From the NCBI RefSeq assembly GCF_003334305.1, contig NZ_QOWS01000004.1: a stretch of DNA of 64,000 bases; one strand, written 5' to 3'. Origin of the DNA: Escherichia coli (GTDB lineage Bacteria > Pseudomonadota > Gammaproteobacteria > Enterobacterales > Enterobacteriaceae). Below are positions 48,045-50,721 of this stretch, piece after piece; positions within the stretch are counted from its first letter, which is position 1; each line of letters begins with the position of its first letter. Position numbers and translations under genes: made by a program. The notes under the pieces are model-generated. The model had not been told where the DNA came from. It did no database searches and saw only the letters and a list, made by a program, of their open reading frames with translations.

Positions 48045-48071
48045 GGCGAAAAAATCCCCGCAGAGCGGGGC
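48045..48071 (-). terminator. Terminator-like hairpin (distal copy) flanking the BIME
   Basis: Minus strand reads CCCCGCTCTGCGGGG followed by ATTTTTTCGCC. Confidence 0.5.
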
Positions 48072-48100
48072 TCAGACAGATATCAATGTGCGCTTTGTCA

Positions 48101-48200
48101 TGCCGGATGCGGCGTGAACGCCTTATCCGGCCTACAAAAACCTGCAAATTCAATATATTGCAGGATACGTGTAGGCCTGATAAGCGTAGCGCATCAGGCA
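48101..48200. repeat. BIME: two REP palindromic units in inverted orientation
   Basis: TGCCGGATGCGGCGTGAACGCCTTATCCGGCCTAC (48101-48135) and GTAGGCCTGATAAGCGTAGCGCATCAGGCA (48171-48200), matching the REP consensus, with a small central hairpin. Confidence 0.85.
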
Positions 48201-48211
48201 ATTTTGCTTTT

Positions 48212-48240
48212 GGCGAAAAAAAGACCCGCAGAGCGGGCCT
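48212..48240 (-). terminator. Rho-independent terminator of fbaA
   Basis: Minus strand reads GCCCGCTCTGCGGGT followed by CTTTTTTT, about 25 nt after the fbaA stop. Confidence 0.75.
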
Positions 48241-48263
48241 TGAGATAAGCAGAAAGGAATGAC

Positions 48264-49343
48264 TTACAGAACGTCGATCGCGTTCAGTTCCTGGAATGCT
48301 TTTTCCAGACGAGCGATCATCGAAGTCTGACCGGCACGCAGCCATACGCGCGGATCGTAGTATTTCTTGTTCGGCTGATCTTCGCCTTTCGGGTTACCCA
48401 GCTGACCCTGCAGATAAGCTTCGTTCGCTTTGTAGTAGTTCAGAACGCCTTCCCAGGTTGCCCATTGGGTATCGGTATCGATGTTCATTTTCACTACGCC
48501 GTAGCTTACGGAGTCTTTGATTTCCTGAGCAGTAGAACCGGAACCACCGTGGAATACGAAGTTCAGGCTGTTGTGCGGCAGGTTGTGTTTCTTAGAAACA
48601 TATTCCTGAGAATCACGCAGGATGGTCGGAGTCAGAACCACGTTACCCGGCTTGTAAACACCGTGTACGTTACCGAAGGACGCAGCGATGGTGAAACGCG
48701 GGCTGATTTTGCTCAGCTCGGTGTATGCGTAATCAACGTCTTCCGGCTGGGTGTACAGTGCAGAAGCGTCCATGTGGCTGTTGTCCACGCCGTCTTCTTC
48801 ACCACCGGTGCAACCCAGTTCGATTTCCAGAGTCATGCCGATTTTGGACATACGCTCCAGGTATTTAGAGCAGATTTCGATGTTCTCTTGCAGAGATTCT
48901 TCAGACAGGTCGATCATGTGAGAAGAGAACAGCGGCTTACCGGTAGCTGCGAAGTGTTTTTCACCCGCGTCCAGCAGACCGTCGATCCACGGCAGCAGTT
49001 TCTTCGCGCAGTGGTCAGTGTGCAGGATAACCGGAACACCATAATGTTCAGCCATCTGGTGAACGTGATGCGCACCAGAGATCGCGCCCAGGATAGCAGC
49101 ACCCTGCGGAACGTCAGATTTCACGCCTTTACCAGCGATAAAGGAAGCACCACCGTTGGAGAACTGAACGATAACCGGCGCTTTAACTTTAGCAGCAGTT
49201 TCCAGTACGGCGTTGATGGAGTCAGTACCGACGCAGTTTACTGCTGGCAGTGCGAAGTTGTTTTCTTTTGCTACCTGGAAAACTTTCTGTACGTCATCAC
49301 CAGTGATTACGCCAGGTTTTACGAAATCAAAAATCTTAGACAT
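48264..49343 (-). CDS. fbaA: Fructose-bisphosphate aldolase class II
   Basis: ORF 48264..49427; start MSKIFDFVKPG at 49343 gives 359 aa. Confidence 0.93.
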   Translation of the reverse strand: MSKIFDFVKPGVITGDDVQKVFQVAKENNFALPAVNCVGTDSINAVLETAAKVKAPVIVQFSNGGASFIAGKGVKSDVPQGAAILGAISGAHHVHQMAEHYGVPVILHTDHCAKKLLPWIDGLLDAGEKHFAATGKPLFSSHMIDLSEESLQENIEICSKYLERMSKIGMTLEIELGCTGGEEDGVDNSHMDASALYTQPEDVDYAYTELSKISPRFTIAASFGNVHGVYKPGNVVLTPTILRDSQEYVSKKHNLPHNSLNFVFHGGSGSTAQEIKDSVSYGVVKMNIDTDTQWATWEGVLNYYKANEAYLQGQLGNPKGEDQPNKKYYDPRVWLRAGQTSMIARLEKAFQELNAIDVL

Positions 49344-49354
49344 GTCTCTTGTCC

Positions 49355-49515
49355 TGTATCGTCGGGCCTTATACTCATCATACTTCAAGTTGCATGTGCT
49401 GCGTCTGCGTTCGCTCACCCCAGTCACTTACTTATGTAAGCTCCTGGGGATTCACTCTCTTGTCGCCTTCCTGCAACTCGAATTATTTAGAGTATGAAAA
49501 AATGCGTGCTCTAAA
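49355..49515. repeat. ERIC/IRU enterobacterial intergenic repeat
   Basis: Minus-strand core GTGAATCCCCAGGAGCTTACATAAGTAAGTGACTGGGGTGAGCG (plus 49412-49455) matches the ERIC consensus; flanking arms extend the element. Outer ends are approximate. Confidence 0.75.
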
Positions 49516-49557
49516 AGCGCGCTGAAACAAGGGCAGGTTTCCCTGCCCTGTGATTTT

Positions 49558-50721
49558 TTACTTCTTAGCGCGCTCTTCGAGCATCGCTACTGCAGGCAGT
49601 ACTTTACCTTCCACGAATTCGAGGAATGCGCCGCCGCCAGTGGAGATGTAGGAGATTTTGTCAGCAATGCCGAACAGGTCGATTGCTGCCAGAGTGTCGC
49701 CGCCGCCAGCGATGGAGAACGCTTCGCTGTCTGCGATAGCGTTAGCCACGATTTCAGTACCTTTGCGGAAGTTCGGGAATTCGAACACGCCAACCGGACC
49801 GTTCCACAGAATGGTTTTCGCATTCTTCAGGATTTCAGCCAGTTCCTGAGCGGAAGCATCACCGATATCCAGGATCTGCTCGTCAGCTTTCACATCGTTA
49901 ACAGATTTCAGGGTAGCCGGTGCAGTTTCAGAGAACTCGGTTGCTACGCGAACATCAGACGGAACCGGGATGTTGCAGGTGGTCAGCAGACGTTTAGCTT
50001 CGTCAACCAGGTCAGCTTCGTACAGGGATTTACCCACATCGTGGCCTTGTGCCGCGATAAAGGTGTTAGCGATACCACCACCAACAATCAGCTGGTCAGC
50101 GATTTTAGACAAGGAGTCCAGAACGGTCAGTTTGGTAGATACTTTAGAACCACCAACGATAGCCACCATCGGGCGAGCTGGTTCTTTCAGTGCTTTACCC
50201 AGCGCGTCCAGTTCAGCTGCCAGCAGCGGGCCTGCGCACGCAACGTCAGCGAATTTACCGATACCGTGAGTAGAAGCCTGCGCGCGGTGAGCAGTACCGA
50301 ATGCGTCCATTACGAACACGTCACACAGTGCAGCGTATTTTTTGGACAGGGTTTCGTCGTCTTTCTTCTCGCCTTTGTTGAAGCGAACGTTTTCCAGAAC
50401 AACCAGTTCACCTTCAGCAACGTCAACGCCGTCGAGGTAATCTTTAACCAGGCGAACCGGGTTAGACAGTTTGTCTTTCAGGTAGTTAACAACCGGCAGC
50501 AGAGAGAATTCTTCGTTGTACTCGCCTTCGGTAGGACGACCCAGGTGGGAAGTTACCATCACTTTTGCGCCTTGTTTCAGGGCCAGTTCGATGGTCGGCA
50601 GAGAAGCACGGATACGCGCGTCGCTGGTTACTTTCCCGTCTTTTACTGGTACGTTCAGATCCGCACGGATAAATACACGTTTCCCAGCAAGATCCAGATC
50701 GGTCATCTTAATTACAGACAT
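49558..50721 (-). CDS. pgk: Phosphoglycerate kinase
   Basis: ORF 49558..50784; start [10 protein letters not shown] at 50721 gives 387 aa. Confidence 0.93.

Follow-up and report, generated by a model that had tools for sequence, protein, structure and literature searches.

[quoted passage not shown] The family, also named IRU, was reportedly described by Sharples and Lloyd in 1990, by Hulton, Higgins and Sharp in 1991 and by Wilson and Sharp in 2006. REP/BIME stem-loops are said to act as intercistronic or 3' mRNA stabilisers, for example at malE-malF, in work attributed to Higgins et al. in 1982 and Newbury et al. in 1987.

According to reviews, the ERICs of Escherichia coli have been catalogued genome-wide, with about 30 copies in K-12 and additional strain-specific ones. 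Yersinia ERICs that are co-transcribed at the 3' ends of genes are reported to lower the level of the upstream transcript (De Gregorio et al., 2005; PMC2229807, PMC3184786, PMC10969869). In the model outlined in the reviews, ribosomes block folding of the element and unmask an RNase E site in its 3' terminal repeat; the effect is described there as orientation-dependent and as needing an ERIC that overlaps or abuts the upstream stop codon. The Correia/NEMIS elements of Neisseria are reported to be cleaved by RNase III (De Gregorio et al., 2003; PMC10969869); no report of RNase III cleavage of ERIC RNA was found in the literature searched.

Here, we analyzed an ERIC element predicted between pgk and fbaA in a stretch of 64,000 nucleotides of the E. 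coli chromosome (hereafter the window, to which all positions refer). Compared with the ERIC/IRU family, this copy shows nothing unusual of substance: it has the length of 127 bp, the exact core 44-mer, terminal inverted repeats, a hairpin fold and a distal TA flank, and it is an intergenic, apparently transcribed element beside highly expressed genes and present in multiple copies per genome. The only departures are a presumed proximal TA copy that reads CA and a rare T at position 49377. Like the ERICs of Yersinia enterocolitica, it appears to be co-transcribed with both neighbours and has a long terminal-repeat hairpin. In a crude, ORF-based survey of independent copies, its orientation was that of 13 of the 16 stop-adjacent copies. 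Unlike the Yersinia elements, it lies 61 nt downstream of the stop codon and should stay folded. With REP/BIME sequences it shares the character of a repeated extragenic palindrome in an operon transcript, which could block 3'-to-5' exonucleases and give unequal segment stability, and a REP pair also follows fbaA in this operon; however, ERIC is a separate repeat family, a TA-targeting MITE with a much longer imperfect hairpin. The Correia/NEMIS elements belong to an unrelated sequence family, but they are likewise MITEs whose terminal repeats form a long mRNA duplex, and they offer a plausible model for processing of an ERIC stem.

Identity and extent of the element

The region of the window around the element matches the yggE-argO-mscS-fbaA-pgk-epd segment of MG1655, where all these genes are annotated on the minus strand. 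The downstream gene, fbaA (48264-49343, minus strand), encodes class II fructose-bisphosphate aldolase and is supported by the ORF list, the MG1655 annotation and an exact protein match to ALF_ECOLI. The upstream gene, pgk (49558-50721, minus strand; 1164 nt), encodes phosphoglycerate kinase according to the ORF list and the MG1655 annotation, with its stop codon at 49558-49560; the corresponding ORF in the list reaches further upstream, to 50784. The two genes are separated by a spacer of 214 nt (49344-49557, minus strand; 3,071,245-3,071,458 in MG1655).

The original prediction, based on the core 44-mer, placed an ERIC on the minus strand inside this spacer. The core (GTGAATCCCCAGGAGCTTACATAAGTAAGTGACTGGGGTGAGCG) was indeed found as an exact match at 49412-49455 on the minus strand; no second site turned up in the window when up to three mismatches were allowed, and none was seen in 100 shuffles that preserved dinucleotide composition. 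This central 44-nt segment is an imperfect palindrome that covers the ERIC1R and ERIC2 primer sites, and an inverted-repeat search placed its inner repeat at 49418-49431 and 49436-49449. Identity, strand and location of the predicted element were thus all correct. The span proposed for it, 49355-49515, contains the ERIC and proved slightly too wide. Boundaries set from filled and empty sites in other genera, together with alignment to the family consensus, put the full-length element at 49370-49496 on the minus strand (127 nt including the flanking dinucleotides; 3,071,271-3,071,397 in MG1655 coordinates). The body of the element occupies 49372-49494 (minus strand), the promoter-distal flank is a TA at 49370-49371 and the promoter-proximal dinucleotide at 49495-49496 now reads CA.

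Terminal inverted repeats were identified by inverted-repeat search at 49472-49495 (5' side in the mRNA, AUACUCUAAAUAAUUCGAGUUGCA) and, also in the predicted fold, at 49371-49394 (3' side in the mRNA, UGCAACUUGAAGUAUGAUGAGUAU), both given as on the minus strand. The two arms are 24 nt long and 79% complementary, and they pair with each other in the minimum-free-energy fold. With its flanking TA, the element ends 26 nt upstream of the fbaA AUG, and on its upstream side 61 nt containing two hairpins separate it from the pgk stop codon.

Family membership was judged on independently collected copies and not on a remembered consensus. Two copies came from unrelated places in Yersinia and Hafnia loci, and 120 metagenome stretches with the ERIC2 22-mer provided about 50 distinct flank contexts. 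The consensus was built from 39 unlinked loci, leaving out composite, truncated and chimeric copies as well as all pgk-fbaA copies. The window ERIC aligned to this consensus over 127 of 127 columns without gaps at 87% identity, compared with the level of at least about 70% over the full element that had been proposed for a genuine ERIC; outside the 22-mer used to fish the copies, identity was 85%. It was identical to the E. coli-type subfamily consensus (seven unlinked copies) at 124 of 127 positions (98%) and 76-78% identical to the Yersinia and Hafnia copies. Further copies were present elsewhere: metagenome contigs yielded at least seven unlinked loci of the E. coli type and over 30 others, and megablast placed the element at a median of 5 and up to 10 sites per complete E. 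coli genome. That the similarity reflects chance, or a degenerate fragment and not a real ERIC, has a vanishingly small probability: this reading is refuted by the exact 44-mer with its zero expectation, the full-length gapless alignment to independent copies and the clean filled and empty sites described below. The pgk-fbaA element is an ordinary full-length member of the ERIC/IRU family.

Several additional observations were made on individual copies. At position 49377, the window ERIC has a minus-strand T (in GATGAG), which is a rare allele: the base is C in MG1655, in eight other complete E. coli genomes and in the subfamily consensus, G in E. albertii, and C in all sampled metagenome copies except one (L127) that is identical to the window. 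The whole spacer was matched at 100% by at least four complete E. coli genomes among those listed. Five matches in viral contigs had near-identical ERIC copies and scores and possibly represent one locus; they were not used alone for the consensus. In three metagenome contigs (L109, L111 and L180), a pgk-fbaA flank lies on one side of the repeat and the flank of an unrelated ERIC locus on the other. These are assembly chimeras across the repeat, and they call for caution with metagenome contigs around ERICs. In seven others (L092, L100, L107, L108, L117, L132 and L200), a half-ERIC was joined to another GC-rich palindromic repeat (…GAACGCTGC…GCAGCGGCCCCGAAGGGG…); such composite copies may correspond to the long ERIC variants known to bear insertions, or to nesting of repeats. 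A further metagenome pgk-ERIC-fbaA segment (L118:4601-5977) showed differences to the window at third codon positions of 3.5% on the pgk side and 17% on the fbaA side, and is either a recombinant or an assembly chimera.

Insertion site and occurrence in related genera

To compare filled and empty sites, the fbaA locus was fetched from 80 species and the length of the pgk-fbaA spacer was taken in each. An empty spacer of about 83-110 nt is the state of most Enterobacteriaceae, including Citrobacter werkmanii, Pseudocitrobacter, Kluyvera, Enterobacter cloacae, Pluralibacter, Phytobacter, Superficieibacter and Mangrovibacter (83-110 nt) and Klebsiella pneumoniae (97 nt). Occupied spacers were found in E. 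coli (214 nt, full-length ERIC), in three strains of E. albertii (142 nt, ERIC with a 72-nt internal deletion), in Citrobacter sp. FP75 (214 nt, ERIC of another subfamily) and in the soil metagenome-assembled genome CTSoil_132 (201 nt, divergent ERIC-like element).

The ancestral spacer consists of four parts: a GC-rich hairpin after the pgk stop codon, a more variable second hairpin, a T-rich tail and the fbaA leader. The first hairpin, AGGGCAGG-GAAA-CCUGCCCU followed by UGUUUC, is a perfect 8-bp inverted repeat that lies 8 nt past the pgk stop codon (49530-49549, minus strand). It is kept in 11 Enterobacteriaceae spacers, with compensatory changes on both sides at three of its eight pairs, and it predates the ERIC insertion. 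Its sequence suggests a weak terminator or a stem-loop that protects 3' ends; a terminator scan flagged it for the plus strand alone, on which there is no converging gene, and on the mRNA strand it would be a weak terminator at best because its tail is UGUUUC. The second, imperfect hairpin (AGCGCGC-UUUUAGA-GCACGC; 49496-49523, minus strand), identified from the sequence and the minimum-free-energy fold, is followed by a U tract (AUUUUUUC) that runs straight into the ERIC. This hairpin is a putative terminator, and an equivalent one with a T-run was found in most related genera. Directly downstream of the ERIC, the leader and ribosome-binding region of fbaA (GGCCCGACGAUACAGGACAAGAGAC; 49344-49369, minus strand) is the most conserved block of the spacer. 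The comparison across genera revealed a strongly conserved leader, GGCCGAAGATACAGGAC, preceding the fbaA ATG, in which the GGCCGAAGATACAGG block is near-invariant.

In E. coli, the T-rich tail and the conserved fbaA leader are separated precisely by the extra 127 nt. The junction of the filled site in E. coli reads TTTTTTCA|TAC...GTA|TAAGGCCC, whereas the empty site in Phytobacter reads TTTTTTAAGGCCCGACG, and the empty sites in relatives read ...TTTTC TA ACGGCC or ...TTTTT TA AGGCCC. The TA and CA flanks are consistent with a TA-targeted MITE insertion with duplication of the TA, followed by one substitution in the proximal TA. The comparison shows that the ERIC entered the spacer, probably at a TA, with the T-rich end of the post-pgk hairpins on one side and the fbaA leader on the other.

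Within E. coli, the spacer was present at 80% or higher coverage in at least 5418 of 5426 complete genomes, with 97-100% identity in the sampled matches. When an artificial empty-site sequence was used as a query, every top-ranked match was split by a 123-nt insert, and neither an empty E. coli spacer nor an E. albertii-type allele in E. coli occurred among the top-ranked genomes. Judged from these genomes, the ERIC at pgk-fbaA is shown to be now fixed in E. coli. In the E. albertii spacers (L073:3859-4000; L208 and L209:1859-2000), the ERIC has lost its central 72 nt, and both terminal repeats survive the deletion and still pair, with a predicted mini-hairpin of -13.2 kcal/mol. Since this remnant is common to the three E. 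albertii strains, the alignments show an insertion older than the divergence of E. coli and E. albertii.

The elements of Citrobacter sp. FP75 (L003:3848-3974) and CTSoil_132 (L013:3847-3975) match the E. coli ERIC in their position relative to the leader and in their orientation, and the site is empty in C. werkmanii, which is related to FP75, and in most genera. The FP75 copy is 85-86% identical to unlinked copies of a different subfamily versus 76% to the same-site copy of E. coli. The latter value is close to the neutral expectation for the two genomes (third-codon identity of 73-78% and spacer identity of 69-74%). The same-site elements may thus represent either independent hot-spot insertions, or one old insertion with losses and within-genome homogenisation. 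A further reading is that the spacer is a site of repeated ERIC capture or retention, in E. coli with E. albertii, in FP75 and in the soil Enterobacteriaceae lineage, by elements of different subfamilies that share position and orientation, and hence a case of convergent MITE domestication. We consider this unlikely; if true, it would mean that a strong hairpin upstream of the fbaA leader is selectively useful and uncouples the decay of two glycolytic cistrons. The recurrent same-site, same-orientation occupancy, together with the retained stem of E. albertii, is the only residue of the analysis that is of mild interest.

The spacer on the other side of fbaA was also inspected. In the fbaA-mscS spacer (48056-48241, minus strand), a terminator hairpin with the tail TTTTTTTCGCCAAAAGCAA follows fbaA. 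Downstream of it are two REP-like palindromes (a BIME-like pair) and then a second, about 85% identical copy of the terminator and tail; the hairpins of the two terminator copies lie at 48221-48241 and 48056-48070. From this arrangement, it looks as if the fbaA terminator had been duplicated around the REP pair. An Rfam match to ES036/CssrF at 48136-48178 (plus strand) falls on these REP sequences. Elsewhere in the window, above-threshold Rfam matches at 33691-33874, 34523-34673 and 34915-35065 (plus strand) correspond to 6S RNA (ssrS) and two Sib antitoxin RNAs, as expected for this region of E. coli.

Transcription and predicted folding of the spacer

The original prediction also held that the element is part of a co-transcribed operon, and published transcription start mapping supports this. 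A 5'RACE experiment aimed at the '214-nucleotide intergenic region' found no promoter or transcription start, and the authors attributed fbaA transcription to promoters lying upstream of epd and pgk (PMC2759082). Our consensus scan revealed no sigma-70-like site on the mRNA (minus) strand of the spacer, and the epd promoter is the only listing for the operon in the RpoD SELEX catalogue. On the basis of these three lines of evidence, we infer that the ERIC is transcribed within the pgk-fbaA read-through mRNA.

The same data bear on the idea that the ERIC supplies a promoter, or is itself a gene for a small or antisense RNA. Rfam returned nothing at gathering thresholds in the pgk-fbaA spacer. 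In a search with relaxed E-value, the whole 129-position model of RF02818 (V_AS5, Vibrio RNA AS5), a Vibrio antisense RNA family, aligned end to end with 49375-49497 (minus strand; 40.2 bits, E = 1e-7), sharing with the E. coli ERIC the outer stem and the GUGAAU...GUGACUGGGGUG core. ERIC-like copies can thus be detected as discrete RNAs elsewhere. However, the score is far below the gathering threshold of 96 bits, and the window ERIC has no membership in this family; to judge from the alignment, V_AS5 was probably built on a Vibrio ERIC-like repeat. A promoter function was rejected, as no sigma-70-like site, no transcription start by 5'RACE and no RpoD SELEX peak was listed for the spacer, and we regard the whole idea of a promoter or RNA gene as highly improbable.

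Structure prediction indicated strong folding of the spacer. The whole spacer folds at -77.7 kcal/mol (z = -6.8 versus shuffles), and the ERIC alone at -49.5 kcal/mol on the mRNA strand (z = -7.7) versus -37.6 kcal/mol on the opposite strand. Pairing in the stem is maintained among the 39 copies through compensatory variants, as at pair 6-122, which is CG in 26, TA in 9 and AT in 3. The outer stem of these copies, read on the mRNA strand, has 39 G.U versus 4 A.C combinations, a count that comes mostly from one fixed position. Better predicted folding on the mRNA strand is a property of the ERIC family. When the ERIC was deleted or inverted in silico, the unpaired probability of the fbaA Shine-Dalgarno sequence and AUG stayed at 0.54-0.55. 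The hairpin therefore appears autonomous, without predicted gating of fbaA translation, and masking of the ribosome-binding site by the ERIC was rejected on the basis of these deletion and inversion calculations. On the mRNA strand, the element would form a self-contained, very stable hairpin that neither occludes nor exposes the fbaA ribosome-binding site.

It was also considered whether the copy acts as a destabiliser of the Yersinia 'B-orientation' type, in which ribosomes terminating on pgk would open the hairpin and expose an RNase E site in its 3' terminal repeat, leaving less pgk than fbaA mRNA. The unmasking model is described in reviews (PMC2229807, PMC3184786, PMC10969869), from which the A/B naming of orientations was taken, and the crude ORF-based survey mentioned above showed that stop-abutting ERICs favour the orientation of the E. 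coli copy (13 versus 3, binomial p = 0.02). However, 61 nt and two hairpins separate the ERIC from the pgk stop codon, beyond the reach of a terminating ribosome, and thus ribosome unmasking as in Yersinia is not expected here. [quoted passage not shown] We consider such a destabiliser very unlikely. E. coli RNase III studies, as covered by a term search, made no mention of pgk, fbaA or ERIC.

Sequence diversity and possible effects on the operon mRNA

Two samples were used to examine sequence diversity of the ERIC within E. coli. In the first, comprising 16 E. coli-like metagenome haplotypes, the ERIC had a pi of 0.0073 with 4 of 127 sites segregating, versus a pi of 0.020-0.024 and 40 of 400 at flanking third codon positions (Fisher p = 0.016, or p = 0.051 without the fished 22-mer). 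The second consisted of 10 sequences, namely eight complete genomes chosen across the range of spacer identity, a choice that should inflate spacer variation, plus the window and MG1655; here the ERIC had a pi of 0.014 and 7 of 127 segregating sites versus 50 of 467 third positions (p = 0.09). The 26-nt fbaA leader had no segregating site in either sample. Compared with third codon positions in the genes on either side, nucleotide diversity of the ERIC was lower by a factor of about two to three. These results suggest that the ERIC evolves no faster, and perhaps more slowly, than synonymous-like sites, although the evidence for constraint is weak and low diversity could be explained without selection, by ascertainment through the 22-mer, by gene conversion or by collapse of repeats during assembly.

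The reading that we favor, with a probability of about 0.85, is that the whole explanation is a resident ERIC which is read through with pgk and fbaA, folds as an autonomous hairpin and has a modest effect at most. Between the pgk and fbaA cistrons, the element could act as a strong structural obstacle and mark a place for processing. Its hairpin could delay 3'-to-5' exonucleases that arrive from the fbaA side or, alternatively, could cap the 5' side of a processed fbaA segment; no switch would be involved. An effect of the hairpin on segmental mRNA stability, as raised in the original prediction, is a reasonable expectation by analogy with the Yersinia ERICs, and an ERIC that is a selectively near-neutral passenger is fully compatible with the data.

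There are hints against simple neutrality, namely the lower diversity of the ERIC, the mini-hairpin of terminal repeats in E. albertii and the same-site elements in two other lineages. They may be taken to indicate a domesticated RNA element, whose hairpin is kept by selection because it determines how stable the pgk and fbaA segments are relative to each other, or how they are processed, either by giving RNase E or RNase III a point of entry or by blocking exonucleases, and which was retained or repeatedly acquired at this position. Such a role would fit the shared point and orientation of the elements in E. coli, FP75 and the soil lineage although sister taxa are empty, the fold architecture common to all three (-50 to -57 kcal/mol), the terminal stem retained in the E. 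albertii remnant and the better folding of the family consensus on the mRNA strand, with its G.U excess in the outer stem; Yersinia ERICs, moreover, are reported to change the levels of flanking transcripts (PMC2229807, PMC3184786, PMC10969869). On the other hand, the diversity contrasts are weak (p = 0.016 to 0.09) and confounded by fishing bias, possible gene conversion and repeat collapse in metagenome assemblies, most Enterobacteriaceae manage without any element in this spacer, the predicted accessibility of the ribosome-binding site is unchanged without the ERIC, and the proximity to a stop codon needed by the Yersinia mechanism is absent. Domestication is a possible but doubtful alternative to the favored reading of a resident, read-through ERIC.

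The ERIC between pgk and fbaA is correctly recognized, ordinary and already known. Our literature searches found no paper that names this copy specifically; as it is present in K-12, it should be part of the existing ERIC catalogues published for that strain. The discovery value is thus small, and the practical value lies in correct annotation: 127 of the 214 nt of the E. coli pgk-fbaA spacer are a mobile-element hairpin and not dedicated regulatory sequence, which is relevant to engineering or modelling of the glycolytic operon. The states of the spacer, with an ERIC fixed in E. coli, internally deleted in E. albertii, absent from most genera and with elements of other subfamilies at its place in two lineages, provide a natural series in which the effect of an ERIC hairpin on the mRNA of this E. 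coli operon could be tested.
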